Below, one piece after another: positions 745 to 46,633 of a DNA stretch of 64,000 nucleotides. Location of the stretch: positions 1 to 64,000 of the forward strand of contig CM039010.1 of the NCBI GenBank assembly GCA_017499595.2. The letters are read 5' to 3'. A program made the translations under genes and the position numbers. Within the stretch, counting starts at the first letter, position 1; each line of letters opens with the position of its first letter. The notes under the pieces are model-generated. The model made no database searches, was not told the origin of the DNA, and worked only from the letters and a program-made list of their open reading frames with translations. Origin of the DNA: Psilocybe cubensis. Its lineage: Eukaryota.

Positions 745-1749
745 AAGAATAGCCACTGAAGAGTCTATAAAGACGAAAGGGCTGGTTGTTGGGATCCCCC
801 AACAGCCCTCAAGTACTCGTCCTCTCCCAAACTCCTGCCGCTTGTGCCTTCCCAACTCATCCGGGAGCCCTTTCGTCACTGATCTTGCCCTTGACTCGGG
901 GACGTTTCATCGACATGTTGGCTGCCTCACGGCAAGCGGGGCCCTTTTTCTTTCACTCGCTCACGCCTTCTATGTTGGGTTACGGAGGTCATACAAACTC
1001 GTTTTAGTCTAGCTGCGGGGATATCCAGCTATGATGACTTTGTAATTCGAGGGCGCGCAGTTCTTCAATGGGTATGGACATCAGGTGAGAGTACACTGGG
1101 GGTTGTCAGGACCAGCTCTGCTGGATACGCTCCTGGCAAGTCGGTTGCAGCCGGCGACACTACCGAATTGCTGGGACGTCCTAAAGCTTGTGGGTACCGC
1201 CGACCGCTGGAAACAGCCTAGGCACCGGTGGCGACCGGGTATGGTAACAATCCCCAAGATTCAGCGAAAGCTGGAATGGATAATCAGCAGCGAATCCGTA
1301 ACGGTCACGCCGACGGAAGCGTTCAACGACTAGGTGGTAGTGGGGTCTTCGGATCTTAAGATATAGTCTTGGGAGTGGGGAAACCCACATCTGGTATCTA
1401 AACCGCGCCTCGCTGCTTACGAGGACGGCCCGAAGTCCAGAACCGCTTAAAACGCGGGTGACCCGGCCTCCCCTTAGTAAAGGGAGTTAACACAAGGATG
1501 GACAAATAGTTCGTCGCCGGAAATGAACCTGTGGCTGTAATGGCTGATGTGGCGCCCCTTGGTAAAGGGCTTAAAGGGTATTAGCCTGCCATGTCCAATG
1601 GCATGAGAGTGTCCCTTGGTAAAGGACTTAATAGGCAATAGCCTGCTCTTTTGTCATGAGCGGTATGTAGTGATCGTTTGCCTGTACGGTAGCGCCCATT
1701 GCTTGCACTGGTCCACGCCCGTAAAAAATCACGAGCCGCTGGCCTTCTT
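745..1749 (+). ncRNA. Type I hammerhead ribozyme split by a group I intron (halves 745-809 and 1739-1749)
   Basis: CTGAAGA-GTCT(ATAA)AGAC-GAAA-GGGCTG...CAGCCC-T at 756-809. C17 and the stem I 3' strand (C-TGGCCTTCTT) resume at 1739. Confidence 0.88.
810..1738 (+). ncRNA. Group I self-splicing intron, IC1-like, 929 nt, no homing endonuclease ORF
   Basis: Core motifs: P GAATTGCTGGGA 1165-1176, Q AATCAGCAGC 1282-1291, R GTTCAACGACTA 1321-1332, S AAGATATAGTC 1358-1368. Pairings: P3 CACTACC/GGTAGTG, P7 GACTA/TAGTC, P5abc with GAAA loop and A-rich bulge TATGGTAACAA, P8 UUCG loop, P9 GAAA loop. 5' exon ends in U809, intron ends in G1738, IGS GGGGTTGT 1099-1106. Precisely absent from other copies. 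Confidence 0.92.
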
Positions 1750-1852
1750 TCTATTTCAAACTCACAGTTTAAACTAGTCGCTCGCACCTCGCTTCGCTCG
1801 GTGCTCGCTCCCCCCCTAAACCCAACGACTTTGCTATCACCCATCAGTTACC

Positions 1853-3011
1853 ATGTCATCCCAATACTCTGCTGCATTCTCTCGTGCCATGTCCCCTACC
1901 CTGGACGCACTCACCCAGGCCGTCGTCAACAACACTGTCTTCGGCGTCAACGATGAAGCAGGCCGCCATAACGCTCTTATCGACGAGCTGGCCACTGTGG
2001 TCATCAAAAAAATAGCTGAGTGCCGCTCCGTTGACCAAGTCATAGACTGCGTCTTTTTTGACTATCGTGCTGCCCTCAGGGAGTTTCTCCTCAACCTCGC
2101 ATCGTGGTGCGACAAGAGGGAAACAGTCAAGGCTAGCCTCGAGCGCCTTGAATCTGCCGTTAGCGCAGGCAACACGCCCAATCGCCTTAAGGTGAAGGCA
2201 CCCGAGTTCCAACTTACGAAGGAATTCGCGGATGCCGGGTCAGCGGAGGCTCTTCGAGTCTCCACTACGTTCTCTTCCGCTCGTGATGCCTTCCAAAAGG
2301 CAATTAACGACGGCGCCGTTCAGGCGAAAAAGGACGAGCTGGCTTTTTGGGATGATAAATGCGCGCTCAACTCTTGCTACGAAGCTGCTGCCCTCATCGT
2401 TAAGGCAACTTACGATGATCGCAAATCCAGCTACAAGCTCCCTGTTTTCTCTACAGACAACAAGGGAGTTCGACGTATAGCAGAGTGGGTAGTGTCTCCG
2501 CAAAAGAAAGCCGAATGCAGTGCGCTGCAAACTATACTGCCGGCGATCTTTTCTCATATCAAACAGATTGTCAACATGCGCCACCGCGCCTTGGCAATTA
2601 AGATTGAGAAAAAGCGGACGACTGCGGCAACAGCCGATGTCGAGATGGCCGATGCGACCAAACCAGGTCCATCGATTCAATCCCTTATTGATAAGGGCTT
2701 GAATGCACGTCTCAAAAAGCTCAACCTTGGATCTGTGGGCAAGAAGGCAAGTTTTCGTAACCCTTCACCCATAATTCTGGACACTAATTATTACTCTAAT
2801 TACCCAGACTTTGTCTGGCCAGAATTCGTCCAAGGCTCCTCAACCTCAGGCCAGGAAAGCTGGCCCTTCGAAACCCAAGTCGTCGTCGACGCCTTCGCAG
2901 AGGAAGCCTCAAACCAAGGCTTCCAACAAGGTCGACAACAAGAAGAAAGGGAAGGGGAGAGCTCCCGTCAAGAACAACGATCCAAAGGGAAAGGGAAAGG
3001 CAAGAGCCTAG
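1853..3011 (+). CDS. Predicted spliced ORF1-like isoform, join(1853..2746,2808..3011), 365 aa with Lys-rich tail
   Basis: AAG|GCAAGT donor at 2747, CTAAT branch candidates, CAG acceptor at 2807. Removing 61 nt joins codon 298 to the open frame 2808-3011. Present in all full copies. Confidence 0.7.
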
Positions 3012-5386
3012 ACGCGCGGTCTACTGTAGCATCATTTACGTCGGTGAGACCCGCCTTCCCCAACTCTATTCCTGACGATATACTCACCATGACTAAAACA
3101 GACGCAGTTTCTTTTGTACACCTCAATACCCCGATTTCATTCTTATTGGCTGGCCAGTATAGATCTAGTGTACACTGTAGTCCTGGTGTTTCGGTCCCTG
3201 TTGATGTAGCAAATGATTTATCTCTTGGACTCAATTATATGTTTTTTACACTGCCTTCTAAAAATCTGATCATGCAAGCATGGAATGATTTTCAACGAAG
3301 AATAAGATGGCGTATCTATTTTTTGTTTAAAGAAGGCATGAATAAACCTTTCGATCCAGACTATGGAGTAAGCTCTAAAAAGAAAGAGAAACCTCCAATG
3401 TTACCGCAATTTATGGAACTTGGCCTTTCAATGGGACGTCGGTACGTTATTAAAACGATCGCAAGTATCCCGGAAGAAGCCCTTAAAGAGATGCGAAAGC
3501 ACGCGTTCTCTCCTAAAAGGGACAAGATCCAAAAGTTTCTTTTCGATAACAACTATGTTATTACGATGACAGATAAGAATCTTGGCCTCGCGGTGTCTGA
3601 ACGCGACTGGATATTAAGGAATGAGCTCAATCTTCTTGAAGATGAACGCAACTACGAAGAGTTAGAATTCGAAGTTGCGCAAGAAGTTATGAAGAGCAAA
3701 ATGATTCAGATGCAAACTCTCGCACGTACCGTCGAAGATGAACATCTGTTTCTATTTGAACTTGGGTTGTCTCGATTCTTTCTATCGAATGTACCGGAAG
3801 ACGGATCATCGTTCAAGTATCCTCAATTTCATGGTATACCTAAAATCCACAAGAAACCTACTGGATTTAGGCCCATAATTCCGTGTCACTCTGTAGTATT
3901 TAATCCTGCAGCCAAGTTTGTATCAAAAGAGCTTAAGCCGATTATTAAATCGACTCCTTCAATCATTCACGGAACGAAGGATCTCTTTACGAGATTAAGC
4001 CAATTGCGTATAGACCCCAAACGACAATGGTATTTTGTCACCGGGGATGTAGTTGCTTTCTATCCCAATATTCCGTTGGACTTGTGCATCGAAATCGTTT
4101 GTAATATGTACGAGGAATGGTTACTCAACGCTTCGGAAGAGAACACTGCATTAGCCCATATTAATCCAAATTCGTTAGAGAATAACTTGGTTAAATTGGG
4201 CATCTTTAAACGTGCTATCGAGATTGGCAATACGCAATTGATAACACAACATGGGTCTAGATATTTTAGACAAAAAAATGGCCTCGCAATGGGCGTCGCG
4301 GATTCTCCGGACCTTGCTAACCTCTTTGGAGCCCATTTTGAAATAAAGTCAAAAATCTTAGACCACCCAAACGTGGCCTTCTATGGAAGGTACATCGACG
4401 ATTGTTTCGCAATTGTTTACGCCGAGTCCGAAGCACTTGCACTTAATCTTATTAAAGAAACAATAAAGTTCGATGGTTGTGTTATCGAATGGGCTGTTTC
4501 CTCGTCGGGATGTCAATTTCTCGATGCTTTCATATTCAAGGAGTCTGGAAAACTTCATTGGAAGCCATTTGTCAAGACAGGAAACAACCGAGAACGAGTT
4601 CCATGGGTATCACATCATCCTTTGGACGTCAAACGTGGCGTCTACATTGGAGAGTTATCCAGGTTAGCCGTGCTATGTAGTACCAAGGAAATCTACATCG
4701 GAGCAATTAGAGACCTTAACGCTCTCTATTTGATGCGCGGTTATCCCGAAAACCTAGTCATGTCTTGGTGTAAGAAGAATATACAAGAACGTTGGGAAAA
4801 GCGATTCGCTTTACGAGTCGCAGAGCACGACGAATCCATTCTTGTACTTAAAACCAGATTTGATCAGGTATGGAATTGGTTTTCAGCTGCTGAACTTGGA
4901 AAGACTGTTACCGAGTACTGGTCGGCATGGTATGAACATGCCGAGAAAGGTTTGTATAGTGCAGACTCGTCCAGACCCCTTATCAAACCAGATCCAAATT
5001 ACGTTCACGACCTCGATGATGTTCGCCCGGAGCTGTTCACACAGATCCTCGTGGACGGAGAAACTGAGTTCGTACCGGATTTGAGGAAGATAGGACTACT
5101 CGGAAGTCGTTGGATAGTATCGCGAAAACGCAATACTAATCTTTTCGACCTTGCAAATGTGTGGAAGAAAACAGTCTTTCGTAAACTGGATGAAAACATC
5201 GCTGAAAAAGGTGGTGTTGTTCCCGAAACTCAAAACGTTAATGAAACTTATCATTCTGCTTTAGTTGAAGCTGCTGAACAGATAAGTATCGAAAGTGATA
5301 ACGAGATAATACTTCATAGACGTTCAATCTCACAAGAGAGGGAACATCCAGAATTCGGCAGAATATCCAAATCTTACAACCGATGA
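1853..5386 (+). CDS. Penelope-like reverse transcriptase polyprotein (EN-), subtype A, 1177 aa
   Basis: Motifs TDKNLG, FHGIPKIHK, FRPII, GDVVAFYPNIP, YFRQKNGLAMG, RYIDD (4388-4402), FLD, SHHP. No GIY-YIG motif seen in the C-terminus. Confidence 0.95.
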   Translation: MSSQYSAAFSRAMSPTLDALTQAVVNNTVFGVNDEAGRHNALIDELATVVIKKIAECRSVDQVIDCVFFDYRAALREFLLNLASWCDKRETVKASLERLESAVSAGNTPNRLKVKAPEFQLTKEFADAGSAEALRVSTTFSSARDAFQKAINDGAVQAKKDELAFWDDKCALNSCYEAAALIVKATYDDRKSSYKLPVFSTDNKGVRRIAEWVVSPQKKAECSALQTILPAIFSHIKQIVNMRHRALAIKIEKKRTTAATADVEMADATKPGPSIQSLIDKGLNARLKKLNLGSVGKKASFRNPSPIILDTNYYSNYPDFVWPEFVQGSSTSGQESWPFETQVVVDAFAEEASNQGFQQGRQQEEREGESSRQEQRSKGKGKGKSLDARSTVASFTSVRPAFPNSIPDDILTMTKTDAVSFVHLNTPISFLLAGQYRSSVHCSPGVSVPVDVANDLSLGLNYMFFTLPSKNLIMQAWNDFQRRIRWRIYFLFKEGMNKPFDPDYGVSSKKKEKPPMLPQFMELGLSMGRRYVIKTIASIPEEALKEMRKHAFSPKRDKIQKFLFDNNYVITMTDKNLGLAVSERDWILRNELNLLEDERNYEELEFEVAQEVMKSKMIQMQTLARTVEDEHLFLFELGLSRFFLSNVPEDGSSFKYPQFHGIPKIHKKPTGFRPIIPCHSVVFNPAAKFVSKELKPIIKSTPSIIHGTKDLFTRLSQLRIDPKRQWYFVTGDVVAFYPNIPLDLCIEIVCNMYEEWLLNASEENTALAHINPNSLENNLVKLGIFKRAIEIGNTQLITQHGSRYFRQKNGLAMGVADSPDLANLFGAHFEIKSKILDHPNVAFYGRYIDDCFAIVYAESEALALNLIKETIKFDGCVIEWAVSSSGCQFLDAFIFKESGKLHWKPFVKTGNNRERVPWVSHHPLDVKRGVYIGELSRLAVLCSTKEIYIGAIRDLNALYLMRGYPENLVMSWCKKNIQERWEKRFALRVAEHDESILVLKTRFDQVWNWFSAAELGKTVTEYWSAWYEHAEKGLYSADSSRPLIKPDPNYVHDLDDVRPELFTQILVDGETEFVPDLRKIGLLGSRWIVSRKRNTNLFDLANVWKKTVFRKLDENIAEKGGVVPETQNVNETYHSALVEAAEQISIESDNEIILHRRSISQEREHPEFGRISKSYNR

Positions 5387-6236: not shown

Positions 6237-6323
6237 CCCTAAACCCTAAACCCTAAACCCTAAACCCTAAACCCTAAACCCTAAACCCTAAACCCTAAAC
6301 CCTAAACCCTAAACCCTAAACCC
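6237..6323 (+). repeat. Interstitial telomeric tract (~12 x CCCTAAA) between copies
   Basis: Direct reading. Confidence 0.95.
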
Positions 6324-7233
6324 AAACTCCTGCCGCTTGTGCCTTCCCAACTCATCCGGGAGCCCTTTCGTCACTGATCTTGCCCTTGACTCGGGGACGT
6401 TTCATCGACATGTTGGCTGCCTCACGGCAAGCGGGGCCCTTTTTCTTTCACTCGCTCACGCCTTCTATGTTGGGTTACGGAGGTCATACAAACTCGTTTT
6501 AGTCTAGCTGCGGGGTTATCCAGCTATGATGACTTTGTAATTCGAGGGCGCGCAGTTCTTCAATGGGTATGGACATCAGGTGAGAGTACACTGGGGGTTG
6601 TCAGGACCAGCTCTGCTGGATACGCTCCTGGCAAGTCGGTTGCAGCCGGCGACACTACCGAATTGCTGGGACGTCCTAAAGCTTGTGGGTACCGCCGACC
6701 GCTGGAAACAGCCTAGGCACCGGTGGCGACCGGGTATGGTAACAATCCCCAAGATTCAGCGAAAGCTGGAATGGATAATCAGCAGCGAATCCGTAACGGT
6801 CACGCCGACGGAAGCGTTCAACGACTAGGTGGTAGTGGGGTCTTCGGATCTTAAGATATAGTCTTGGGAGTGGGGAAACCCACATCTGGTATCTAAACCG
6901 CGCCTCGCTGCTTACGAGGACGGCCCGAAGTCCAGAACCGCTTAAAACGCGGGTGACCCGGCCTCCCCTTAGTAAAGGGAGTTAACACAAGGATGGACAA
7001 ATAGTTCGTCGCCGGAAATGAACCTGTGGCTGTAATGGCTGATGTGGCGCCCCTTGGTAAAGGGCTTAAAGGGTATTAGCCTGCCATGTCCAATGGCATG
7101 AGAGTGTCCCTTGGTAAAGGACTTAATAGGCAATAGCCTGCTCTTTTGTCATGAGCGGTATGTAGTGATCGTTTGCCTGTACGGTAGCGCCCATTGCTTG
7201 CACTGGTCCACGCCCGTAAAAAATCACGAGCCG
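6321..7233 (+). ncRNA. Group I intron copy lacking its first ~16 nt and 5' splice site
   Basis: Matches 826-1738, with the same P/Q/R/S core and terminal G7233. Confidence 0.88.
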
Positions 7234-7345
7234 CTGGCCTTCTTTCCATTTAACTCACAGTTTAAACAAGTCGCTCGCACCTCGCTTCGCTCGGTGCTCG
7301 CTCCCCCCCTAAACCCAACGACTTTGCTATTACCCAACAGCTACT

Positions 7346-10300
7346 ATGTCTTCCACTTACTCTGCTGCCTTCTCTCGTGCCATGTCCCCCACCCTGGACG
7401 CACTCACCCAGGCTGTCGTCAACAACACAGTTTTTGGCGTCAACGACGAAGCTGGCCGCCACAACGCCCTCATCGACGAGTTGGCCACTGTCGTCATCAA
7501 GAAAATAGCTGAGTGCCGCTCCATTGACCAGATTGTAGACTGCGTCTTTTTTGACTATCGTGCTGCCCTTAGGGAGTTTCTCCTCAACCTCGCATCGTGG
7601 TGCGATAAGAGGGAAACAGTCAAGGCTAGCCTCGAGCGCCTTGAACTTGCCGTTAGCGCAGGCAACACCCCCAATCGCCTTCGGGTGAAGGCTCCCGAGT
7701 TCCAACTTACGAAGGAATTCGCGGATGCCGGGTCAGCGGAAGCTCTTCGAGTTTCCTCTACGTTCTCCACCGCTCGTGATGTCTTCCAAAAGGCAATCAA
7801 CGACGGCGCCATTCAGGCGAAAAAGGACGAACTGGCCTTTTGGGATGATAAATGCGCACTCAATAACTGTTATGAAGCTGCTGCCCTCATCGTTAAGACA
7901 ACTTACGATGATCGCAAATCCAGCTATAAGCTCCCCGTTTTCTCTACAGACAACAAGGGAGTTCGTCGAATAACAGATTGGGTAGTGTCACCGCAGAAGA
8001 AGGCTGAATGCAGCGCATTGCAAACCATTTTGCCAGCCATCTTCTCTCATATCAAACAGATTGTCAACTTGCGCCACCGCGCTTTGGCAATCAAGATTGA
8101 GAAAAAGCGGTCGACTGCGGCAACAGCCGATGTCGAGATGGCCGATGCGACCAAACCAGGTCCATCGATTCAATCCCTTATTGATAAGGGCTTGAATGCA
8201 CGTCTCAAGAAGCTCAACCTTGGATCTGTGGGCAAGAAGGCAAGTTCTCGTAACCCTTCACCCATAATTCTGGATACTAATTACTATTCTAATTACCCAG
8301 ACTTTGTCTGGCCAGAATTCGTCCAAGGCTCCTCAACCTCAGGCCAAGAAAGCTGGCCCTTCGAAATTCAAACCCTCGTCGACGCCTTCGCAGAAGAAGC
8401 CCCAAACCAAGGCTTCCAACAAGGTCGACAACAAGAAGAAAGGGAAGGGGAGAGCTCCCGTCAAGAACGATCCAAAGGGAAAGGGAAAGGCAAGAGCCTA
8501 GACGCGCGGTCTAATGTAGTACCTTTTACGTCGGTAAGACCCGCCTTCCCCAACTCTATTCCTGACGATATACTCACCATGACTAAAACAGACGCAGTTT
8601 CTTTTGTACACTTACATACGCCGATCTCATTCTTGTTGGCTGGCCAGTATCGTAGTAGTGTACACTGTAGTCCTGGTGTGGTGGTCCCTGTAGATATAGC
8701 AAATGATTTGTCACTCGGACTCAATTATATGTTTTTTACTCTACCTTCTCAAAGTCTGATCATGCAAGCATGGAATGATTTTCAACGAAGAATAAGATGG
8801 CGTATCTATTTTTTGTTTAAGGAAGGCATGAACAAACCTTTTGATCCAGATTACGGAGTAAGCTCAAAAAAGAAAGAGAAACCTCCAGTATTACCGCAAT
8901 ACATGGAACTTGGCCTTTCGATGGGACGTCGGTACGTGCAACGCACGATCGCAAGTATCCCGGAAGAAGCCCTTACGGAGATGCGAAAGCACGCGTTCTC
9001 TCCTAAAAGGGACAAGATCCGTAAGTTTCTTATCGATAACAACTATGTTATTACGATGACAGATAAGAATCTTGGCCTCGCGGTGTCTGAACGCGACTGG
9101 ATATTAAGGAATGAGCTCAATCTTCTTGAAGATGAACGTAACTATGAAGAGTTAGAATTCGAAGTTGCGCAAGAAGTAATGAAGAGCAAAATGATCCAGA
9201 TGCAAACTCTTGCACGTACCGTCGAAGATGAACATCTGTTTCTATTTGAACTTGGGTTGTCTCGATTCTTTCTATCGAATGTACCGGAAGACGGATCATC
9301 GTTCAAGTATCCTCAATTTCATGGTATACCTAAAATCCACAAAAAACCTACTGGATTTAGGCCCATAATTCCGTGTCACTCTGTAGTATTTAATCCTGCA
9401 GCCAAGTTTGTATCAAAAGAGCTTAAGCCGATTATTAAATCGACTCCTTCAATCATTCACGGAACGAAGGATCTCTTTACGAGATTAAGCCAATTGCGTA
9501 TAGACCCCAAACGACAATGGTATTTTGTCACCGGGGATGTAGTTGCTTTCTATCCCAATATTCCGTTGGACTTGTGCATCGAAATCGTTTGTAATATGTA
9601 CGAGGAATGGTTACTCAACGCTTCGGAAGAAAACACTGCATTAGCCCATATTAATCCAAATTCGTTAGGGAATAACTTGGTTAAATTGGGCATCTTTAAA
9701 CGTGCTATCGAGATTGGCAATACGCAATTGATAACACAACATGGGTCTAGATATTTTAGACAAAAAAATGGCCTCGCAATGGGCGTCGCGGATTCTCCGG
9801 ACCTTGCTAACCTCTTTGGAGCCCATTTTGAAATAAAGTCAAAAATCTTAGACCACCCAAACGTGGCCTTCTATGGAAGGTACATCGACGATTGTTTCGC
9901 AATTGTTTACGCCGAGTCCGAAGCACTTGCACTTAATCTTATTAAAGAAACAATAAAGTTCGATGGTTGTGTTATCGAATGGGCTGTTTCCTCGTCGGGA
10001 TGTCAATTTCTCGATGCTTTCATATTCAAGGAGTCTGGAAAACTTCATTGGAAGCCATTTGTCAAGACAGGAAACAACCGAGAACGAGTTCCATGGGTAT
10101 CACATCATCCTTTGGACGTCAAACGTGGCGTCTACATTGGAGAGTTATCCAGGTTAGCCGTGCTATGTAGTACCAAGGAAATCTACATCGGAGCAATTAG
10201 AGACCTTAACGCTCTCTATTTGATGCGCGGTTATCCCGAAAACCTAGTCATGTCTTGGTGTAAGAAGAATATACAAGAACGTTGGGAAAAGCGATTCGCT

Positions 10301-10876: not shown

Positions 10877-11579
10877 AAAGAATACTAGCGCGTAAGGCGT
10901 AAAGCATTAGAAAAAAACCCTAACCGTAAGTATTCCTTGCTACAAAGTAACAAACATCTACTTACAAGCAACACATTGGATTAAATAGCTAAACCTAAAC
11001 CTAAACCCTAAACCCTAAACCCTAAGCCCTAACCTAACCCCAACCCTAAGCTAACTAAGTCTAACCTTAGTAGGAAGTAAGGTAGGCGTGTGAACTTCCG
11101 AAAGGCATGTGATTGTGAAGGGCCGGATCTAATTTAGTACATGGGAAAAGTTACTTAGTACCTCGGGAAAAGTTCCTTAGTACCGTGGAAACATTTTTGA
11201 TGGACCGGATCATGAACTGTCCAATTAAGATTCACAACAATCAATCAATTGATTGTTAGGTAAGGACCCAGGTAAGCTATTTATACTCTTGACATGAGAA
11301 TATTCCCATGTCACGGTTACTCGGAGCCACGTAACCAGAGTATTTTATATCCATGTGATTCACATCACAGTCAATAACCCACGATGTCAAAGAACAAAAG
11401 TGTTGGATCCACTTTTGACAGGTTACCATGTGCCACATCGACCCGTGACACTCTGTTCATCAGAGATCTGTCTAACTTGACAATAAACATTGACAGATTT
11501 GTGATAGTCGGTAAGATACATGACAGCTGCGCAGCATCACTTCACGCGCTGTCATCGGATGTTCCAGAACATTCCTTCT

Positions 11580-11655
11580 AAGAATAGCCACTGAAGAGTC
11601 TATAAAGACGAAAGGGCTGGCTGCTGATAACAATCAACAGCCCTCTGGCCTTCTT
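11580..11655 (+). ncRNA. Intact hammerhead ribozyme (C17 = 11645)
   Basis: Same core and stems as 6097-6172, with a different stem III loop. Confidence 0.9.
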
Positions 11656-12671: not shown

Positions 12672-12772
12672 TCCATTTAACTCACAGTTTAAACAAGTCG
12701 CTCGCACCTCGCTTCGCTCGGTGCTCGCTCCCCCCCTAAACCCAACGACTTTGCTATTACCCAACAGCTACT

Positions 12773-31000: not shown

Positions 31001-31662
31001 CCCTAAAAACCTAAACCCTAAACCCTAAACCCTAAGCCCTAACCTAACCCCAACCCTAAGCTAACTAAGTCTAACCTTAGTAGGAAGTAAGGTAGGCGTG
31101 TGAACTTCCGAACGGCATGTGATTGTGAAGGGCCGGATCTAATTTAGTACATGGGAAAAGTTACTTAGTACTTCGGGAAAAGTTCCTTAGTACCGTGGAA
31201 ACATTTTTGATGGACCAGATCATGAACTGTCCAATTAAGATTCACAACAATCAATCAGTCTATTGTTTGATTGTTAGGTAAGGACCCAGGTAAGCTATTT
31301 ATACTCTAGACATGTGAATATTCCCATGTCGCGGTTACTCGGAGCCACGTAACCAGAGTTTTCTATATCCATGTGATTCACATCACAGTCAATAACCCAC
31401 GATGTCAAAGAACAAAAGTGTTGGATCCACTTTTGACAGGTTACCATATGCCACATTGACCCGTGACACTCTGTTCATCAGAGATCTGTCTAACTTGACA
31501 ATAAACATTGACAGATTTGTGATAGTCGGTAAGATACATGACAGCTGCGCAGCATCACTTCACGCACTGTCATCGGATGTTCCAGAACATTCCTTCTAAG
31601 AATAGCCACTGAAGAGTCTATAAAGACGAAAGGGCTGGCTGCTGATAACAATCAACAGCCCT

Positions 31663-37110: not shown

Positions 37111-40100
37111 CCCTAAACCTAAACCTAAACCCTAAACCCTAAACCCTAAGCCCTAACCTAACCCCAACCCTAAGCTAACTAAGTCTAACCTTAGTAGGAA
37201 GTAAGGTAGGCGTGTGAACTTCCGAACGGCATGTGATTGTGAAGGGCCGGATCTAATTTAGTACATGGGAAAAGTTACTTAGTACTTCGGGAAAAGTTCC
37301 TTAGTACCGTGGAAACATTTTTGATGGACCGGATCATGAATTGTCCAATTAAGATTCACAACAATCAATCATTCTATTTTTTGATTGTTAGGTAAGGACC
37401 CAGGTAAGCTATTTATACTCTAGACATGTGAATATTCCCATGTCGCGGTTACTCGGAGCCACGTAACCAGAGTAATCTATATCCATGTGATTCACATCAC
37501 AGTCAATAACCCACGATGTCAAAGAACAAAAGTGTTGGATCCACTTTTGACAGGTTACCATGTGCCACATTGACCCGTGACACTCTGTTCATCAGAGACC
37601 TGTCTAACTTGACAATAAACATTGACAGATTTGTGATAGTCGGTAAGATACATGACAGCTGCGCAGCATCACTTCACGCGCTGTCATCGGATGTTCCAGA
37701 ACATTCCTTCTAAGAATAGCCACTGAAGAGTCTATAAAGACGAAAGGGCTGGCCGTTTGTACCCCCAAACAGCCCTCTGGCCTTCTTTCTATTTCAAACT
37801 CACAGTTTAAACTAGTCGCTCGCACCTCGCTTCGCTCGGTGCTCGCTCCCCCCCTAAACCCAACGACTTTGCTATCACCCATCAGTTACCATGTCATCCC
37901 AATACTCTGCTGCATTCTCTCGTGCCATGTCCCCTACCCTGGACGCACTCACCCAGGCCGTCGTCAACAACACTGTCTTCGGCGTCAACGATGAAGCAGG
38001 CCGCCATAACGCTCTTATCGACGAGCTGGCCACTGTGGTCATCAAAAAAATAGCTGAGTGCCGCTCCGTTGACCAAGTCATAGACTGCGTCTTTTTTGAC
38101 TATCGTGCTGCCCTCAGGGAGTTTCTCCTCAACCTCGCATCGTGGTGCGACAAGAGGGAAACAGTCAAGGCTAGCCTCGAGCGCCTTGAATCTGCCGTTA
38201 GCGCAGGCAACACGCCCAATCGCCTTAAGGTGAAGGCGCCCGAGTTCCAACTCACGAAGGAATTCGCGGATGCCGGGTCAGCGGAGGCTCTTCGAGTCTC
38301 CACTACGTTCTCTACCGCTCGTGACGTCTTCCAAAAGACGATTAACGACGGCGCCATTCAGGCGAAAAAGGACGAGCTGGCCTTTTGGGATGATAAATGC
38401 GCGCTCAACTCTTGCTACGAAGCTGCTGCCCTCATCGTTAAGGCAACTTACGATGACCGCAAATCCAGCTACAAGCTCCCTGTTTTCTCTACAGACAACA
38501 AGGGAGTGCGACGTATAGCAGAGTGGGTAGTGTCTCCGCAAAAGAAAGCCGAATGCAGTGCGCTGCAAACTATACTGCCGGCGATCTTTTCTCATATCAA
38601 ACAGATTGTCAACATGCGCCACCGCGCCTTGGCAATTAAGATTGAGAAAAAGCGGACGACTGCGGCAACAGCCGATGTCGAGATGGCCGACGCGACCAAA
38701 CCAGGTCCGTCGATTCAATCCCTTATTGATAAGGGCTTGAATGCACGTCTCAAGAAGCTCAACCTTGGATCTGTGGGCAAGAAGGCAAGTTTTCGTAACC
38801 CTTCACCCATAATTCTGGACACTAATTATTACTCTAATTACCCAGACTTTGTCTGGCCCGAATTCGTCCAAGGCTCCTCAACCTCAGGCCAGAAAAGCTG
38901 GCCCTTCGAAACCCAAGTCGTCGTCGACGCCTTTGCAGAGGAAGCCTCAAACCAAGGCTTCCAACAAGGTCGACAACAAGAAGAAAGGGAAGGGGAGAGC
39001 TCCCGTCAAGAACAACGATCCAAAGGGAAAGGGAAAGGCAAGAGCCTAGACGCGCGGTCTACTGTAGCATCATTTACGTCGGTGAGACCCGCCTTCCCCA
39101 ACTCTATTCCTGACGATATACTCACCATGACTAAAACAGACGCAGTTTCTTTTGTACACCTCAATACCCCGATTTCATTCTTATTGGCTGGCCAGTATAG
39201 ATCTAGTGTACACTGTAGTCCTGGTGTTTCGGTCCCTGTTGATGTAGCAAATGATTTATCTCTTGGACTCAATTATATGTTTTTTACACTGCCTTCTAAA
39301 AGTCTGATCATGCAAGCATGGAATGATTTTCAACGAAGAATAAGATGGCGTATCTATTTTTTGTTTAAGGAAGGCATGAATAAACCCTTCGATCCAGACT
39401 ATGGAGTAAGCTCTAAAAAGAAAGAGAAACCTCCAATGTTACCGCAATTTATGGAACTTGGCCTTTCAATGGGACGTCGGTACGTTATTAAAACGATCGC
39501 AAGTATCCCGGAAGAAGCCCTCAAGGAGATGCGAAAGCACGCGTTCTCTCCTAAAAGGGACAAGATCCAAAAGTTTCTTATCGATAACAACTATGTTATT
39601 ACGATGACAGATAAGAATCTTGGCCTCGCGGTGTCTGAACGCGACTGGATATTAAGGAACGAGCTCAATCTTCTTGAAGATGAACGCAACTACGAAGAGT
39701 TAGAATTCGAAGTTGCTCAAGAAGTTATGAAGAGCAAAATGATTCAGATGCAAACTCTTGCACGTACCGTCGAAGATGAACATCTGTTTCTATTTGAACT
39801 TGGGTTGTCTCGATTTTTTCTATCGAATGTACCGGAAGATGGATCATCGTTCAAGTATCCTCAATTTCATGGTATACCTAAAATCCACAAGAAACCTACT
39901 GGATTTAGGCCCATAATTCCGTGTCACTCTGTAGTATTTAATCCTGCAGCCAAGTTTGTATCAAAAGAGCTTAAGCCGATTATTAAATCGACTCCTTCAA
40001 TCATTCACGGAACGAAGGATCTCTTTACGAGATTAAGCCAATTGCGTATAGACTCCAAAAGACAATGGTATTTTGTCACTGGAGATGTAGTTGCTTTCTA

Positions 40101-42278
40101 TCCCAATATTCCGTTGGACTTGTGCATCGAAATCGTTTGTAGTATGTACGAGGAATGGTTACTCAACACTTCGGAAGAAAACACTACATTAGCCCACATT
40201 AAGCCAAATTCGTTAGAGAATAACTTGGTTAAATTGGGCATCTTTAAACGTGCTATCGAGATTGGCAATACGCAATTGATAACACAACATGGGTCTAGAT
40301 ATTTTAGACAAAAAAATGGCCTCGCAATGGGCGTCGCGGATTCTCCGGACCTTGCTAACCTCTTTGGAGCCCATTTTGAAATAAAGTCAAAAATCTTGGA
40401 CCACCCAAACGTGGCCTTCTATGGAAGGTACATCGACGATTGTTTCGCAATTGTTTACGCCGAGTCCGAAGCACTTGCACTTAATCTTATTAAAGAAACA
40501 ATAAAGTTCGATGGTTGTGTTATCGAATGGGCTGTTTCCTCGTCGGGATGTCAATTTCTCGATGCTTTCATATTCAAGGAGTCTGGAAAACTTCATTGGA
40601 AGCCTTTTGTCAAGACAGGAAACAACCGAGAACGAGTTCCATGGGTATCACATCATCCTTTGGACGTCAAACGTGGCGTTTACATTGGAGAGTTATCCAG
40701 GTTAGCCGTGCTATGTAGTACCAAGGAAATCTACATCGGAGCAATTAGAGACCTTAACGCTCTCTATTTGATGCGCGGTTATCCCGAAAACCTAGTCATG
40801 TCTTGGTGTAAGAAGAATATACAAGAACGTTGGGAAAAGCGATTTGCTTTACGAGTCGCAGAGCACGACGAATCCATTCTTGTACTTAAAACCAGGTTTG
40901 ATCAGGTATGGAATTGGTTTTCAGCTGCTGAACTTGGAAAAACTGTTACCGAGTACTGGTCGGCATGGTATGAACATGCCGAGAAAGGTCTGTATAGTGC
41001 AGACTCGTCCAGACCCCTTATCAAACCAGATCCAAATTACGTTCACGACCTCGATGATGTTCGCCCGGAGCTGTTCACACAGATCCTCGTGGACGGAGAA
41101 ACTGAGTTCGTACCGGATTTGAGGAAGATAGGACTACTCGGAAGTCGTTGGATAGTATCGCGAAAGCGCAATACTAATCTTTTCGACCTTGCAAATGTGT
41201 GGAAGAAAACAGTTTTTCGTAAACTGGATGAAGACATTGCCGAAAAAGGTGGTGTTGTTCCCGAAACTCAAAACGTTAATGAAACTTATCATTCTGCTCT
41301 AGTTGAAGCTGCTGAACAGATAAGTATCGAAAGCGATAACGAGATAATACTTCATAGACGTTCAATCTCACAAGAGAGGGAACATCCAGAATTCGGCAGA
41401 ATATCCAAATCTTACAACCGATGAAAAGAATACTAGCGCTTAAGGCGTAAAGCATTAGAAAAAAACCCTAACCGTAAGTATTCATTGCTATAAAGTAACA
41501 AACATCTACTTACAAGCAACACATTGGATTGAATAGCTAAACCTAAACCTAAACCCTAAACCCTAAACCCTAAGCCCTAACCTAACCCCAACCCTAAGCT
41601 AACTAAGTCTAACCTTAGTAGGAAGTAAGGTAGGCGTGTGAACTTCCGAACGGCATGTGATTGTGAAGGGCCGGATCTAATTTAGTACATGGGAAAAGTT
41701 ACTTAGTACTTCGGGAAAAGTTCCTTAGTACCGTGGAAACATTTTTGATGGACCGGATCATGAATTGTCCAATTAAGATTCACAACAATCAATCATTCTA
41801 TTTTTTGATTGTTAGGTAAGGACCCAGGTAAGCTATTTATACTCTAGACATGTGAATATTCCCATGTCGCGGTTACTCGGAGCCACGTAACCAGAGTAAT
41901 CTATATCCATGTGATTCACATCACAGTCAATAACCCACGATGTCAAAGAACAAAAGTGTTGGATCCACTTTTGACAGGTTACCATGTGCCACATTGACCC
42001 GTGACACTCTGTTCATCAGAGACCTGTCTAACTTGACAATAAACATTGACAGATTTGTGATAGTCGGTAAGATACATGACAGCTGCGCAGCATCACTTCA
42101 CGCGCTGTCATCGGATGTTCCAGAACATTCCTTCTAAGAATAGCCACTGAAGAGTCTATAAAGACGAAAGGGCTGGCCGTTTGTACCCCCAAACAGCCCT
42201 CTGGCCTTCTTTCTATTTCAAACTCACAGTTTAAACTAGTCGCTCGCACCTCGCTTCGCTCGGTGCTCGCTCCCCCCC
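37111..42278 (+). mobile_element. PLE copy 8 (subtype A variant), intron-less leader; hammerheads at 37712-37787 and 42136-42211
   Basis: Leader, ORF and 3' UTR. Both hammerheads carry the same private stem III loop. Confidence 0.9.
37891..41424 (+). CDS. Penelope-like RT polyprotein, subtype A variant
   Basis: Intact 1177-aa ORF with RT motifs. Confidence 0.95.
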   Translation: MSSQYSAAFSRAMSPTLDALTQAVVNNTVFGVNDEAGRHNALIDELATVVIKKIAECRSVDQVIDCVFFDYRAALREFLLNLASWCDKRETVKASLERLESAVSAGNTPNRLKVKAPEFQLTKEFADAGSAEALRVSTTFSTARDVFQKTINDGAIQAKKDELAFWDDKCALNSCYEAAALIVKATYDDRKSSYKLPVFSTDNKGVRRIAEWVVSPQKKAECSALQTILPAIFSHIKQIVNMRHRALAIKIEKKRTTAATADVEMADATKPGPSIQSLIDKGLNARLKKLNLGSVGKKASFRNPSPIILDTNYYSNYPDFVWPEFVQGSSTSGQKSWPFETQVVVDAFAEEASNQGFQQGRQQEEREGESSRQEQRSKGKGKGKSLDARSTVASFTSVRPAFPNSIPDDILTMTKTDAVSFVHLNTPISFLLAGQYRSSVHCSPGVSVPVDVANDLSLGLNYMFFTLPSKSLIMQAWNDFQRRIRWRIYFLFKEGMNKPFDPDYGVSSKKKEKPPMLPQFMELGLSMGRRYVIKTIASIPEEALKEMRKHAFSPKRDKIQKFLIDNNYVITMTDKNLGLAVSERDWILRNELNLLEDERNYEELEFEVAQEVMKSKMIQMQTLARTVEDEHLFLFELGLSRFFLSNVPEDGSSFKYPQFHGIPKIHKKPTGFRPIIPCHSVVFNPAAKFVSKELKPIIKSTPSIIHGTKDLFTRLSQLRIDSKRQWYFVTGDVVAFYPNIPLDLCIEIVCSMYEEWLLNTSEENTTLAHIKPNSLENNLVKLGIFKRAIEIGNTQLITQHGSRYFRQKNGLAMGVADSPDLANLFGAHFEIKSKILDHPNVAFYGRYIDDCFAIVYAESEALALNLIKETIKFDGCVIEWAVSSSGCQFLDAFIFKESGKLHWKPFVKTGNNRERVPWVSHHPLDVKRGVYIGELSRLAVLCSTKEIYIGAIRDLNALYLMRGYPENLVMSWCKKNIQERWEKRFALRVAEHDESILVLKTRFDQVWNWFSAAELGKTVTEYWSAWYEHAEKGLYSADSSRPLIKPDPNYVHDLDDVRPELFTQILVDGETEFVPDLRKIGLLGSRWIVSRKRNTNLFDLANVWKKTVFRKLDEDIAEKGGVVPETQNVNETYHSALVEAAEQISIESDNEIILHRRSISQEREHPEFGRISKSYNR

Positions 42279-42340
42279 TAAACCCTAAACCCTAAACCCT
42301 AAACCCTAAACCCTAAACCCTAAACCCTAAACCCTAAACC
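42276..42340 (+). repeat. Interstitial telomeric tract (~9 x CCCTAAA)
   Basis: Direct reading. Confidence 0.93.
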
Positions 42341-45300
42341 ACAGTTTTTGGCGTCAACGACGAAGCTGGCCGCCACAACGCCCTCATCGACGAGTTGGCC
42401 ACTGTCGTCATCAAGAAAATAGCTGAGTGCCGCTCCATTGACCAGATTGTAGACTGCGTCTTTTTTGACTATCGTGCTGCCCTTAGGGAGTTTCTCCTCA
42501 ACCTCGCATCGTGGTGCGATAAGAGGGAAACAGTCAAGGCTAGCCTCGAGCGCCTTGAACTTGCCGTTAGCGCAGGCAACACCCCCAATCGCCTTCGGGT
42601 GAAGGCTCCCGAGTTCCAACTTACGAAGGAATTCGCGGATGCCGGGTCAGCGGAAGCTCTTCGAGTTTCCTCTACGTTCTCCACCGCTCGTGATGTCTTC
42701 CAAAAGGCAATCAACGACGGCGCCATTCAGGCGAAAAAGGACGAACTGGCCTTTTGGGATGATAAATGCGCACTCAATAACTGTTATGAAGCTGCTGCCC
42801 TCATCGTTAAGACAACTTACGATGATCGCAAATCCAGCTATAAGCTCCCCGTTTTCTCTACAGACAACAAGGGAGTTCGTCGAATAACAGATTGGGTAGT
42901 GTCACCGCAGAAGAAGGCTGAATGCAGCGCATTGCAAACCATTTTGCCAGCCATCTTCTCTCATATCAAACAGATTGTCAACTTGCGCCACCGCGCTTTG
43001 GCAATCAAGATTGAGAAAAAGCGGTCGACTGCGGCAACAGCCGATGTCGAGATGGCCGATGCGACCAAACCAGGTCCATCGATTCAATCCCTTATTGATA
43101 AGGGCTTGAATGCACGTCTCAAGAAGCTCAACCTTGGATCTGTGGGCAAGAAGGCAAGTTCTCGTAACCCTTCACCCATAATTCTGGATACTAATTACTA
43201 TTCTAATTACCCAGACTTTGTCTGGCCAGAATTCGTCCAAGGCTCCTCAACCTCAGGCCAAGAAAGCTGGCCCTTCGAAATTCAAACCCTCGTCGACGCC
43301 TTCGCAGAAGAAGCCCCAAACCAAGGCTTCCAACAAGGTCGACAACAAGAAGAAAGGGAAGGGGAGAGCTCCCGTCAAGAACGATCCAAAGGGAAAGGGA
43401 AAGGCAAGAGCCTAGACGCGCGGTCTAATGTAGTACCTTTTACGTCGGTAAGACCCGCCTTCCCCAACTCTATTCCTGACGATATACTCACCATGACTAA
43501 AACAGACGCAGTTTCTTTTGTACACTTACATACGCCGATCTCATTCTTGTTGGCTGGCCAGTATCGTAGTAGTGTACACTGTAGTCCTGGTGTGGTGGTC
43601 CCTGTAGATATAGCAAATGATTTGTCGCTCGGACTCAATTATATGTTTTTTACTCTGCCTTCTCAAAGTCTGATCATGCAAGCATGGAATGATTTTCAAC
43701 GAAGAATAAGATGGCGTATCTATTTTTTGTTTAAGGAAGGCATGAACAAACCTTTTGATCCAGATTACGGAGTAAGCTCAAAAAAGAAAGAGAAATCTCC
43801 AGTATTACCGCAATACATGGAACTTGGCCTTTCGATGGGACGTCGGTACGTGCAACGCACGATCGCAAGTATCCCGGAAGAAGCCCTTACGGAGATGCGA
43901 AAGCACGCGTTCTCTCCTAAAAGGGACAAGATCCGTAAGTTTCTTATCGATAACAACTATGTTATTACGATGACAGATAAGAATCTTGGCCTCGCGGTGT
44001 CTGAACGCGACTGGATATTAAGGAATGAGCTCAATCTTCTTGAAGATGAACGTAACTATGAAGAGTTAGAATTCGAAGTTGCGCAAGAAGTAATGAAGAG
44101 CAAAATGATCCAGATGCAAACTCTTGCACGTACCGTCGAAGATGAACATCTGTTTCTATTTGAACTTGGGTTGTCTCGATTCTTTCTATCGAATGTACCG
44201 GAAGACGGATCATCGTTCAAGTATCCTCAATTTCATGGTATACCTAAAATCCACAAGAAACCTACTGGATTTAGGCCCATAATTCCGTGTCACTCTGTAG
44301 TATTTAATCCTGCAGCCAAGTTTGTATCAAAAGAGCTTAAGCCGATTATTAAATCGACTCCTTCAATCATTCACGGAACGAAGGATCTCTTTACGAGATT
44401 AAGCCAATTGCGTATAGACCCCAAACGACAATGGTATTTTGTCACCGGGGATGTAGTTGCTTTCTATCCCAATATTCCGTTGGACTTGTGCATCGAAATC
44501 GTTTGTAGTATGTACGAGGAATGGTTACTCAATGCTTCGGAAGAAAACACTGCATTAGCCCATATTAATCCAAATTCGTTAGAGAATAACTTGGTTAAAT
44601 TGGGCATCTTTAAACGTGCTATCGAGATTGGCAATACGCAATTGATAACACAACATGGGTCTAGATATTTTAGACAAAAAAATGGCCTCGCAATGGGCGT
44701 CGCGGATTCTCCGGACCTTGCTAACCTCTTTGGAGCCCATTTTGAAATAAAGTCAAAAATCTTAGACCACCCTAATGTGGCCTTCTATGGAAGGTACATC
44801 GACGATTGTTTTGCAATTGTTTACGCCGAGTCCGAAGCACTTGCACTTAATTTAATTAAAGAAACAATAAAGTTCGATGGTTGTGTTATCGAATGGGCTG
44901 TTTCCTCGTCGGGATGTCAATTTCTCGATGCTTTCATATTCAAGGAGTCTGGAAAACTTCATTGGAAGCCTTTTGTCAAGACAGGAAACAACCGAGAACG
45001 AGTTCCATGGGTATCACATCATCCTTTAGACGTCAAACGTGGCGTTTACATTGGAGAGTTATCCAGGTTAGCCGTGCTATGTAGTACCAAGGAAATCTAC
45101 ATTGGAGCAATTAGAGACCTTAACGCTCTCTATTTGATGCGCGGTTATCCCGAAAACCTAGTCATGTCTTGGTGTAAGAAGAATATACAAGAACGTTGGG
45201 AAAAGCGATTCGCTTTACGAATCGCAGAGCACGACGAATCCATTCTTGTACTTAAAACCAGGTTTGATCAGGTATGGAATTGGTTTTCAGCTGCTGAACT

Positions 45301-46633
45301 TGGAAAAACTGTTACCGAGTACTGGTCGGCATGGTATGAACATGCCGAGAAAGGTCTGTATAGTGTAGACTCGTCCAGACCCCTTATCAAACCAGATCCA
45401 AATTACGTTCACGACCTCGATGATGTTCGCCCGGAGCTGTTCACACAGATCCTCGTGGACGGAGAAACTGAGTTCGTACCGGATTTGAGGAAGATAGGAC
45501 TACTCGGAAGTCGTTGGATAGTATCGCGAAAGCGCAATACTAATCTTTTCGACCTTGCAAATGTGTGGAAGAAAACAGTTTTTCGTAAACTGGATGAAGA
45601 CATTGCCGAAAAAGGTGGTGTTGTTCCCGAAACTCAAAACGTTAATGAAACTTATCATTCTGCTCTAGTTGAAGCTGCTGAACAGATAAGTATCGAAAGC
45701 GATAACGAGATAATACTTCATAGACGTTCAATCTCACAAGAGAGGGAACATCCAGAATTCGGCAGAATATCCAAATCTTACAACCGATGAAAAGAATACT
45801 AGCGCTTAAGGCGTAAAGCATTAGAAAAAAACCCTAACCGTAAGTATTCATTGCTATAAAGTAACAAACATCTACTTACAAGCAACACATTGGATTAAAT
45901 AGCTAAACCTAAACCTAAACCCTAAACCCTAAACCCTAAGCCCTAACCTAACCCCAACCCTAAGCTAACTAAGTCTAACCTTAGTAGGAAGTAAGGTAGG
46001 CGTGTGAACTTCCGAACGGCATGTGATTGTGAAGGGCCGGATCTAATTTAGTACATGGGAAAAGTTACTTAGTACTTCGGGAAAAGTTCCTTAGTACCGT
46101 GGAAACATTTTTGATGGACCGGATCATGAACTGTCCAATTAAGATTCACAACAATCAATCAATTGATTGTTAGGTAAGGACCCAGGTAAGCTATTTATAC
46201 TCTTGACATGTGAATATTCCCATGTCGCGGTTACTCGGAGCCACGTAACCAGAGTAATCTATATCCATGTGATTCACATCACAGTCAATAACCCACGATG
46301 TCAAAGAACAAAAGTGTTGGATCCACTTTTGACAGGTTACCATGTGCCACATTGACCCGTGACACTCTGTTCATCAGAGACCTGTCTAACTTGACAATAA
46401 ACATTGACAGATTTGTGATAGTCGGTAAGATACATGACAGCTGCACAGCATCACTTCACGCGCTGTCATCGGATGTCTAGAACATTCCTTCTAAGAATAG
46501 CCACTGAAGAGTCTATAAAGACGAAAGGGCTGGTTGTTGGTACCCCCCAACAGCCCTCTGGCCTTCTTTCCATTTAACTCACAGTTTAAACAAGTCGCTC
46601 GCACCTCGCTTCGCTCGGTGCTCGCTCCCCCCC
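42340..46633 (+). mobile_element. PLE copy 9 (subtype B), most proximal, 5'-truncated; hammerhead at 46493-46568
   Basis: Lacks the leader and first ~27 codons. Joined to unique DNA by CCCTAAACCCTAA (46631-46643). Confidence 0.9.
42341..45790 (+). pseudogene. 5'-truncated RT polyprotein ORF (native ATG lost, otherwise open)
   Basis: Frame begins at TVFGVNDE, directly after the telomeric repeats. Confidence 0.85.

Follow-up and report, generated by a model that had tools for sequence, protein, structure and literature searches.

The closest described relatives of the elements considered here are the Coprina and Athena Penelope-like retroelements (PLEs), which are deficient in endonuclease (EN) and, as far as the accessible text of two accounts goes, join telomeric overhangs through reverse-complement telomere repeats located beside a hammerhead ribozyme (PMC8557442; PMC4209133). 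In the same partly accessible literature they are described as having a single reverse transcriptase (RT) open reading frame (ORF) without endonuclease and as lying in telomeric head-to-tail arrays with the 3' ends facing inward (Gladyshev and Arkhipova 2007, via PMC8557442); they possess terminal repeats, and Coprina 3' ends consist of reverse-complement telomere repeats with an adjoining hammerhead (PMC8557442). An array that appears to have all of these features opens the stretch of DNA studied here, positions 1 to 64,000 of contig CM039010.1 of Psilocybe cubensis (assembly GCA_017499595.2). This stretch of 64,000 nt is called the window, and coordinates are window positions unless a locus is named. 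The array differs from the published elements in that a group I intron is found in the 5' leader, here and in five of 80 related loci; none is mentioned in the PLE descriptions found, so far as their text was accessible. On balance, the insert is probably a genuine group I intron of about 0.93 kb in the leader of Coprina-type elements, one that is mobile and that only the presumably dispensable 5' copy would tolerate.

Nuclear group I introns are known from ribosomal RNA (rRNA) genes only, according to the accessible parts of two accounts (PMC3679873; PMC9548176). A literature search of incomplete coverage turned up no group I intron described from a Penelope-like element, nor any nuclear one outside the ribosomal DNA (rDNA). 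With the nuclear rDNA group I introns (RF00028) the window introns share a P3-P9 core, a P1 helix whose 5' splice site is marked by a U.G pair, a terminal G, the lack of an ORF and guide-directed mobility. They differ in their host, which is the transcript of a telomeric retrotransposon and not rRNA, and, taken together with the relatives' introns, in two dimensions, 143-288 nt lying between splice site and guide and a conserved extension of ~290-490 nt following P9. Residence in rRNA genes, which is not found here, is a habit of the known nuclear members and not a defining feature of the ribozyme.

Three further systems are comparable in part. Arkhipova et al. (2003, cited in PMC4209133) reportedly described Penelope elements that keep a spliceosomal intron in their 5' region. 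As in the window, an intron is kept there in the 5' or repeat region of an element that replicates through RNA, and intron-bearing and intron-free copies occur together; the window intron differs in being of the group I type (predicted to be autocatalytic), in being nested in a second ribozyme and in its own horizontal mobility. Twin-ribozyme introns (GIR1 lariat-capping plus GIR2) likewise place two ribozymes with interdependent folds and reactions in one transcript, but the partner here is the hammerhead of the host instead of a second group-I-like ribozyme, and neither GIR1 nor a homing endonuclease ORF is present. Retrozymes and other hammerhead-bounded circular RNAs, as far as two partly accessible reports describe them (PMC5680766; PMC7761336), resemble the hammerhead-bounded units of the array, whose tandem units, mismatch-free in the compared segments, are compatible with copying of processed monomers; the units here differ in being autonomous and RT-encoding.

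Rfam model RF00028 (gathering score 50) matched the + strand of the window four times at the gathering threshold and with full model coverage, at 1094-1390 (70.9 bits) and at 6508-6885, 23484-23861 and 31866-32243 (73 bits each). Each of the four cores lies 5' of a full ORF (1853-5386, 7346-10876, 24324-27857 and 32706-36239). Comparison of the Rfam cores with the ORF list thus bears out the preliminary description of this DNA, which had stated that all four introns run into a full ORF. The Rfam core comprises 378 nt of a 929-nt insert, all of which is read as intron, and self-BLAST of the window located the ~900-nt leader at four places only. The features that define the intron-bearing copies are as follows.

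185..809, + strand: 5' terminal repeat (pLTR-like) of element copy 1; its end is the hammerhead core plus helix III, with the core motif starting at 756; in self-BLAST 147-810 matches 10989-11645
810..1738, + strand: group I intron copy 1, 929 nt; one single-nucleotide polymorphism (SNP), in the 5' insertion between splice site and guide
1853..5386, + strand: RT ORF of subtype A, 1177 aa, copy 1
6237-6320: (CCCTAAA)12, directly 5' of intron copy 2
6321..7233, + strand: group I intron copy 2, without its first 15-18 nt and without a 5' splice site; start read as 6321 or 6324
6593-6600, + strand: guide GGGGGTTG of intron copy 2
7234..7316, + strand: tail (exon 2) of copy 2, composed of C and TGGCC..., a hairpin with the conserved loop CTCGCTTCGCTCG, C7 and TAAACCC
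7346..10876, + strand: RT ORF of subtype B, 1176 aa, copy 2; 97-99% identity to Psilocybe cubensis proteins
10989..11645, + strand: 3' terminal repeat of copy 2, composed of a telomere-like tract, ~570 nt and the hammerhead; cleavage site after 11645; junction intron-free
22628..23280, + strand: 5' terminal repeat of copy 3, ending in ...CAGCCCT, the last T being hammerhead U16.1
23281..24209, + strand: copy 3 of the group I intron, taken as reference, 929 nt; 5' splice site between 23280 and 23281 (U/C), last base G24209, exon 2 from C24210
23484..23861, + strand: catalytic core of copy 3 (Rfam RF00028, 73 bits)
23569..23576, + strand: guide GGGGGTTG of copy 3, forming P1 with CAGCCCT/C over 8 contiguous base pairs
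23862..24209, + strand: conserved 3' extension of intron copy 3
24324..27857, + strand: RT ORF of subtype A, copy 3
31007..31662, + strand: 5' terminal repeat of copy 4
31663..32591, + strand: group I intron copy 4; no difference from copy 2 in the 900 nt compared
32706..36239, + strand: RT ORF of subtype A, copy 4

The borders of the insert were read against the intron-free junctions, 13 in number, which have the form CAGCCCTC^TGGCC. Intron-bearing junctions read CAGCCCT/C AAGTACTCG...(929 nt)...CACGAGCCG/C TGGCC, with slashes at the splice sites, and excision of the insert in silico gives a hammerhead-tail junction identical to all 3' ends. In group I introns the exon ends in a U that is paired with a G of the guide in P1, and the last base of the intron is G. 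With a shift of one base, the 5' exon ends in U and the insert in G, in line with this rule. The copies show 0-2 mismatches over their last 900 nt, copies 2 and 4 being identical, which agrees with an earlier estimate of a base or two; both SNPs lie in the 288-nt stretch between splice site and guide. The earlier count of four intron-bearing repeats holds for three copies, whereas copy 2 is 5'-truncated by 15-18 nt and is preceded by (CCCTAAA)12 instead of lying within a repeat. No sense-strand ORF of >=40 aa, and so no homing endonuclease ORF, is found inside the intron, and Rfam gave no GIR1 match. The minimum-free-energy fold of the 1086-nt leader was uninformative. Leader copies without the core, of the kind expected from a spliced leader with exon-like flanks, were looked for and not found; the leader occurs at the four introns only, and GGAAATGAACCTGTGG, AGGGTATTAGCC and AAAACGCGGGTGACCC lie inside introns with one exception.

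Long telomeric tandem arrays are hard to assemble, and the leader could in principle be a product of faulty assembly, or else a piece of rDNA or of mitochondrial DNA wrongly placed in a repetitive chromosome end. This is very improbable. The four copies of the insert are cleanly joined to three different kinds of flank, 10 sequencing runs from several studies contain half or more of the sampled leader words, and homologous introns occupy leaders on independent metagenomic contigs. None of the 14 runs listed as containing the stretch is recorded as RNA. Rfam gave no rRNA match in the intron flanks across 48 kb, the flanks being retroelement repeat, tail and RT ORF.

As independent replicates, 80 related loci were fetched from metagenome contigs and screened for introns by regular expressions, by Rfam (20 loci at the gathering threshold, 4 at an E-value threshold) and by our own P7-P9 model over 81 sources. 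Sense-strand group I cores 5' of the RT ORF were detected in four loci: L071 with two (introns a and b; 72.8 and 76.5 bits), L069 (39.6 bits), L052 (34 bits) and L063 (31.6 bits). The last three are below the Rfam gathering score (31.6-39.6 bits), and L069 is cut by the contig end. The P7-P9 model matched these four loci and the four window copies, and nothing else in the 81 sources. One more locus, L049, starts inside the 3' part of such an intron (BLAST match to L063 only), which brings the total to 5 of 80. All five have the intron in the 5' leader, at insertion sites other than that of the window. The insertion sites, empty sites and guide pairings are listed below, L071a and L071b being the two introns of L071.

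Window: inserted inside the hammerhead cleavage triplet; guide GGGGGUUG, target CAGCCCU/C, 8 contiguous pairs
L052: 1071 nt, inserted 4 nt past the cleavage site; empty sites in L063 and in the intron-free sisters L048, L075 and L054; guide GGGUUAA, target UUAACU/C, 7 contiguous pairs
L063: 1073 nt, inserted in the tail hairpin loop, as is L049; empty sites in L052 and in the intron-free sisters L048, L075 and L054; guide GGGCGCA, target UCGCU/C, 5 contiguous pairs
L071a: 846 nt, inserted ~13 nt past the cleavage site; empty site in the 3' copy of the same element; guide GGCAAAAG, target ACUUCGU/C, 3 contiguous pairs
L071b: 960 nt (L071 4856-5815), inserted at codon 5, inside the RT coding sequence 13 nt past the ATG; removal restores a window-like N-terminus, MSSNTGSASS...; guide GGGGCUUG, target UCAAACA/C, 1 contiguous pair

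There are thus five different insertion sites, all between the hammerhead and codon 5. The base at exon position -1 is U in four of the five introns (A in L071b), and intron position +1 is C, the last intron base G and exon 2 position +1 C in all five; the boundary in L049 is also G/C. Since the first G of the guide can pair with C+1 of either the intron or exon 2, both are C in every case. The 3' extension motifs GGAAATGAACCTGTGG and AGGGTATTAGCC occur in the four window introns and L071 only, all but one GGAAATGAACCTGTGG match there being in intron a; a third motif, CCCTTGGTAAAGG, has loose matches elsewhere too.

The guide consists of the 7-8 nt directly 5' of a conserved GU and helix P2, and its location is homologous across the window, L052 and L063. 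It fits the differing local exon strongly in L052 and L063 and weakly or not at all in L071a and L071b. Guides set against the targets of other introns form no more than 4 contiguous pairs, and a pairing of the observed length is unique within the intron (one of 921 positions in the window, one of 1063 in L052). P1 hairpins assigned by Rfam were rejected as non-homologous between copies; pairing of the guide with telomeric G-strand RNA had rested on these hairpins and was dropped with them. The guide of L071b, which mismatches its own exon, partly fits a window-type target (4 contiguous pairs, 7 of 8 pairs in all), and its exon 2 begins CUGGC as in the window.

For the core fold, RNAalifold on five homologues predicted 79 pairs, 37 of them with changes on both sides, including pairs of P3, P8 and P9, in a small sample and with kinship ignored; four of the six P3 pairs covary. 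The subgroup features are presumably IC1-like. The distance from 5' splice site to guide is 143-288 nt, and the conserved extension runs ~290-490 nt past P9. Just past P9 the sequence CUAAAC is kept in five of six introns whatever the telomere type, with CUAAGG in L069. Telomere repeats are 7-mers (CCCTAAA) in the window (1-184) and the L052 group (L052 6356-6459) and 6-mers (CCCTAA) in L071 (9682-9693, 10302-10313).

These borders bear on a different explanation, in which the insert does not splice and is a 5' untranslated module with a group I-derived fold, serving in end protection, as a promoter or in translation and joined to the elements by RT template jumps at hammerhead-cleaved ends. 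The window borders do fall within 1 nt of the hammerhead cleavage site, all four copies keep the insert unspliced, and no role is assigned to the strongly conserved 3' extension or to the 5' part, which is rich in pyrimidines. However, the junction retains C17, which a hammerhead-cleaved 5' end would lose; the relatives' borders lie off the cleavage sites and are nevertheless precise; the guides fit differing local exons in the window, L052 and L063; the U at exon -1 and the terminal G obey the group I rule; and L071b splits a coding sequence. The explanation is accordingly given a low probability. Its narrower form, a leader existing as a separate RNA that was captured by template jumps at cleaved ends, was rejected because C17 is kept and the relatives' precise insertions are off the cleavage sites.

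In the window the intron lies inside a second putative ribozyme. Each unit ends ~770 nt past the stop codon with a hammerhead-like motif (CUGAAGAG...CGAAA plus helices), followed by an 83-88-nt tail in which a hairpin (loop CUCGCUUCGCUCG) precedes 7 consecutive C and then 1-12 copies of the telomere repeat, the tail ends reading C7(TAAACCC)1-12. The same tail module follows every intron-free hammerhead. Its loop CUCGCUUCGCUCG (e.g. 7281-7293) is present in about 30 of the 80 loci, in Coprina lineages whose RTs are 31-66% identical to that of the window, and is proposed as a possible site of recognition by the reverse transcriptase. Helices II and III, together with a helix I of 4+5 bp, can be traced in the sequence. 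The 5' splice site of the window intron falls between U16.1 and C17, within the cleavage triplet, and the strand that the exon contributes to P1 doubles as the 3' strand of helix III. The helix I partner UGGCCUUCUU, which pairs with AAGAAUAGCCA, begins only 3' of the intron, 929 nt away, and the sequence that follows C17 in the intron-bearing copies is unable to pair as helix I, as read from sequence. With the helix I partner this far off and P1 on the helix III strand, the 5' hammerhead should not cut before splicing; in the window lineage it would be disabled until the intron is removed. In L052 the predicted P1 overlaps hammerhead helix I.

The motif scan (CUGANGA plus GAAA) found 16 hammerhead cores in the window, with predicted cleavage positions 810, 6162, 11645, 12661, 17072, 21483, 21827, 22554, 23281, 28628, 30928, 31663, 37016, 37777, 42201 and 46558. 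The tail comes next at 13 of the 16 sites and the intron at three (810, 23281 and 31663). The ten hammerheads that the preliminary description had named as intron-free are all among the 16 and are all followed by the tail. Its placing of these ten directly after an ORF end is right for nine, which lie 768-777 nt past an ORF stop, and not for 12661, which lies past a 948-nt 3' fragment; and the intron-free solo repeats at 21827, 22554 and 37777 are not on its list, nor are the three sites with the intron next. The remaining elements of the array on which the comparison of junctions draws are as follows.

1..184, + strand: terminal telomere, (CCCTAAA)n
12662-17072 and 17073-21483, + strand: two tandem intron-free subtype-B units with hammerhead sites at both ends
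37113..42201, + strand: full element with 5' repeat and intact hammerhead (site 37777), without intron
42340..46645, + strand: 5'-truncated element at the inner end of the array, carrying its last hammerhead (site 46558) and tail

When junctions are sorted by what follows the tail, the intron is present in 4 of the 7 that lead into a full ORF and in none of the 10 of the 3'-end type. The central claim of the earlier description, that the intron occurs in 5' leaders only and never 3' of an ORF, is therefore upheld in the window. A hand-calculated Fisher test on these counts (4/7 vs 0/10) gives p 0.015, a value valid only for independent copies and, the window copies being not fully independent, only indicative. 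The caution in the first account that the copies may not be independent events was justified, the ORFs of copies 1, 3 and 4 being 99.4-99.8% identical. In L071, a separate lineage, the intron is again present in the 5' copy and absent from the 3' copy.

The two tandem units show zero mismatches in the segments compared (the 600-nt repeat, the leader, the ORF and the 769-nt 3' interval), a result that fits either the copying of a processed RNA, multimeric or circular, or a duplication of very recent date. Between subtype-B units that have the intron and those that lack it, the 3531-nt ORF differs at 1 nt, and the 769 nt from the ORF stop to the hammerhead site are identical. It had been proposed that intron-free repeats are precise complementary DNAs (cDNAs) of spliced RNA. 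They do match the ligated exons letter for letter, but for element 37113-42201 a copy that was never invaded fits as well: its form is that expected either of a cDNA from spliced RNA or of a never-invaded copy.

It had also been suggested that the intron shields the 5' end of the transcript from self-cleavage. The geometry in the window, with P1 on helix III, makes such protection plausible in this lineage; it is not general, since the hammerheads of L071a, L063 and L071b are intact and element 37113-42201 is intron-free. A stronger form of the idea holds that the intron has been domesticated as a switch: selection would keep it to guard the 5' repeat, which may hold the promoter, from the hammerhead, splicing would free monomers, and the intron-free units would all be cDNAs. 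Several observations suit this proposal, namely the position of the window intron inside the cleavage triplet with P1 sequestering the 3' strand of helix III, the overlap of P1 with helix I in L052, the hammerhead-bounded tandem intron-free units without mismatch in the compared segments, and the single nucleotide in 3531 nt of ORF (none in 769 nt) that separates subtype-B units with and without intron. It is nonetheless doubtful, as the hammerhead helices are untouched in L071a, L063 and L071b, element 37113-42201 retains its 5' repeat without an intron, and, of the 30 loci that show a hammerhead motif 5' of the ORF start, 26 have intron-free leaders, in which the hammerhead-to-ATG interval is short (84-172 nt). 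In L066, ~1 kb (~370-1420) separates a hammerhead-like motif from the ATG, and neither Rfam nor our own model detects a group I intron there; this interval may represent an insert of another kind, or the resemblance of the motif to a hammerhead may be fortuitous.

Comparison of the intron with its flanks, which had been proposed as a check, was carried out in the window, and the intron differences are far below the flank differences. For the same copy pairs the introns are 0-2 nt apart in 900 nt and the 5' repeats 8-17 nt apart in 600 nt. The ORF of copy 2 differs from the others by 145-153 nt in ~3530 (up to 4.4%; copies 2 and 4 by 153 in 3534), and its tail-to-ATG interval by 6 nt in 114; the ORFs of copies 1, 3 and 4 are 99.4-99.8% identical to each other. 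In the alignment the block of intron identity stops ~11-13 nt from the intron borders. L052 and L063 show the opposite pattern, with ORFs 87.5% identical, intron cores 68% identical and different sites. The last ~230 nt of these two introns (L052 1283-1514, L063 1581-1821) are ~87% identical, like the ORFs, and the 5' parts cannot be aligned; this mosaic could reflect recombination between introns or uneven rates. In a FastTree phylogeny of 59 RT proteins, intron-bearing elements fall into 3 clades, and well-supported branches force at least 3 gains or losses. Near-identical introns on divergent ORFs, the opposite pattern in L052 and L063 and the presence in three RT clades together indicate that the histories of intron and host are uncoupled. 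The simplest route would be reverse splicing into element RNA with reverse transcription then carried out by the element itself. Re-entry by reverse splicing, which the preliminary description had offered as an alternative, fits these data: introns 0-2 nt apart in 900 nt on ORFs up to 4.4% apart, an identity block ending near the intron borders, and guides that fit the local exon in L052 and L063.

A founder effect would account for the polarity in a simpler way. A single ancestral insertion in a 5' copy would have been inherited and shuffled between subtypes by recombination or template switching, and the polarity would be accidental. The four introns are indeed 99.8-100% identical, the ORFs of copies 1, 3 and 4 are 99.4-99.8% identical, and the Fisher value of p 0.015 assumes an independence that fails. 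On the other side stand five insertion sites all between the hammerhead and codon 5, which by rough arithmetic would rarely arise by chance in a 4.4-kb unit, the separate case of L071 with an intron in the 5' and not the 3' copy, and an identity block that stops at the intron borders and not at arbitrary points of homology. Given these replicates in other lineages a pure founder effect is the less likely account, and we hold it to be improbable.

In the mechanism that we favour for the mobile intron, unspliced RNA would be uncuttable at the 5' hammerhead, so that the upstream repeat would be kept, and splicing would rebuild a hammerhead junction identical to the 3' ends and the tandem junctions. 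The intron would move between elements by reverse splicing into element RNA and subsequent copying by the element RT. The 3' hammerhead-tail module would be required in cis, both to process the 3' end and to prime on the telomere overhang, and the 5' copy would be a dispensable by-product of the repeat structure, the only place in which an insert could persist. The 3' and tandem junctions would be regenerated from RNA with an intact hammerhead, and for that reason the intron could not be there.

Several findings weigh against this account. Leader junctions at 12661, 17072 and 37777 lead into full ORFs (from 12773, 17184 and 37891) and are intron-free, and element 37113-42201 has retained a 5' repeat while carrying no intron. 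The four window copies are not independent events, and a 5' and a 3' copy are both visible in two lineages only, the window and L071. The predicted hammerhead helices of L071a, L063 and L071b are untouched by the insertion, so blocking is not family-wide, and P1 is poor in L071a and L071b (3 and 1 contiguous pairs, with A at exon -1 in L071b). The presumed essential role of the 3' module is one suggested by its conservation. On a 161-nt piece Rfam gave RAGATH-1-hammerhead at 23 bits and Hammerhead_3 at 19.5 bits, both below gathering scores; across 48 kb it gave no hammerhead at E<=1. The hammerhead label consequently rests on core motifs, helices read from sequence and the literature. Folding of seven hammerhead pieces produced a three-way junction in the L071 3' copy only.

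A broader version of the favoured account is more tentative, and we regard it as possible at best. An intron family would have left the rDNA, become resident in telomeric PLEs and spread by reverse splicing and element RT, and the window lineage would have acquired a two-ribozyme switch. Unspliced transcripts would then serve as uncuttable full-length genomic RNA, and spliced ones, with the hammerhead restored, would be cut to monomers for translation or tandem copying.

The host elements match the published Coprina and Athena descriptions as Coprina-type endonuclease-less Penelope-like retroelements, an assignment made on sequence features with no reference Coprina sequence in the tree. The closest database entries to the window ORF are Psilocybe cubensis proteins (97-99% identity), followed by many proteins of 1150-1200 aa from soil-type contigs (35-64%). 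Pfam found no domain in the window ORF even at E<=1; RVT_1 was matched in 6 of 12 aligned family members (best E 2e-8), and an endonuclease domain, including GIY-YIG, was absent from all 12 in the same search. A profile search of the PDB gave a single weak match, to a reverse transcriptase (E 0.074). The closest database homologue is named reverse transcriptase domain protein. For ORF 7346-10876 a near-identical database homologue carries precomputed annotations PF00078, PF28514 and PF26215; local scans gave neither of the last two. Two ORF subtypes are distinguished, A with 1177 aa (copies 1, 3 and 4) and B with 1176 aa (copy 2), and the intron precedes both, as previously stated.

The array begins at the telomere, (CCCTAAA)n at 1-184, which is the start of the window and grades into a degenerate telomere-like tract that opens the terminal repeat. 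From there to ~46.6 kb, head-to-tail units, all on the + strand, are each built around the 1176- or 1177-aa ORF. A degenerate telomere-like tract is also found in each 3' untranslated region, ~110-190 nt past the ORF stop (10989-11070 and equivalents; also 147-190), and the 5'-truncated repeat fragments and 5' repeats all begin in such a tract (147, 21901, 22628, 31007 and 37113). The tract may serve telomerase as a seed for healing eroded ends, halt reverse transcription or mark the start of the transcript. At 28628-28880 the junction is scrambled: the tail and a single telomere repeat are succeeded by a duplicate of a partial hammerhead 3' piece and by another tail, and a 5'-truncated ORF (28880-30160) follows. 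Inward of the array, unique subtelomeric sequence contains a 1336-aa ORF (58848-62858) with TPR repeats and a C-terminal CHAT domain (E 3.7e-32).

The window intron would be the first nuclear group I intron outside rRNA genes. If the favoured account is true, a conserved intron family in a telomeric retrotransposon breaks the rRNA-only rule. It would also provide a natural system for the postulated spread of group I introns by reverse splicing and reverse transcription, a route for which, to our knowledge, no natural nuclear source of reverse transcriptase has been available so far. The nesting of one ribozyme in the active site of another would further yield directly testable predictions on the coordination of self-cleavage with self-splicing over the life cycle of the retroelements from which chromosome ends are built.

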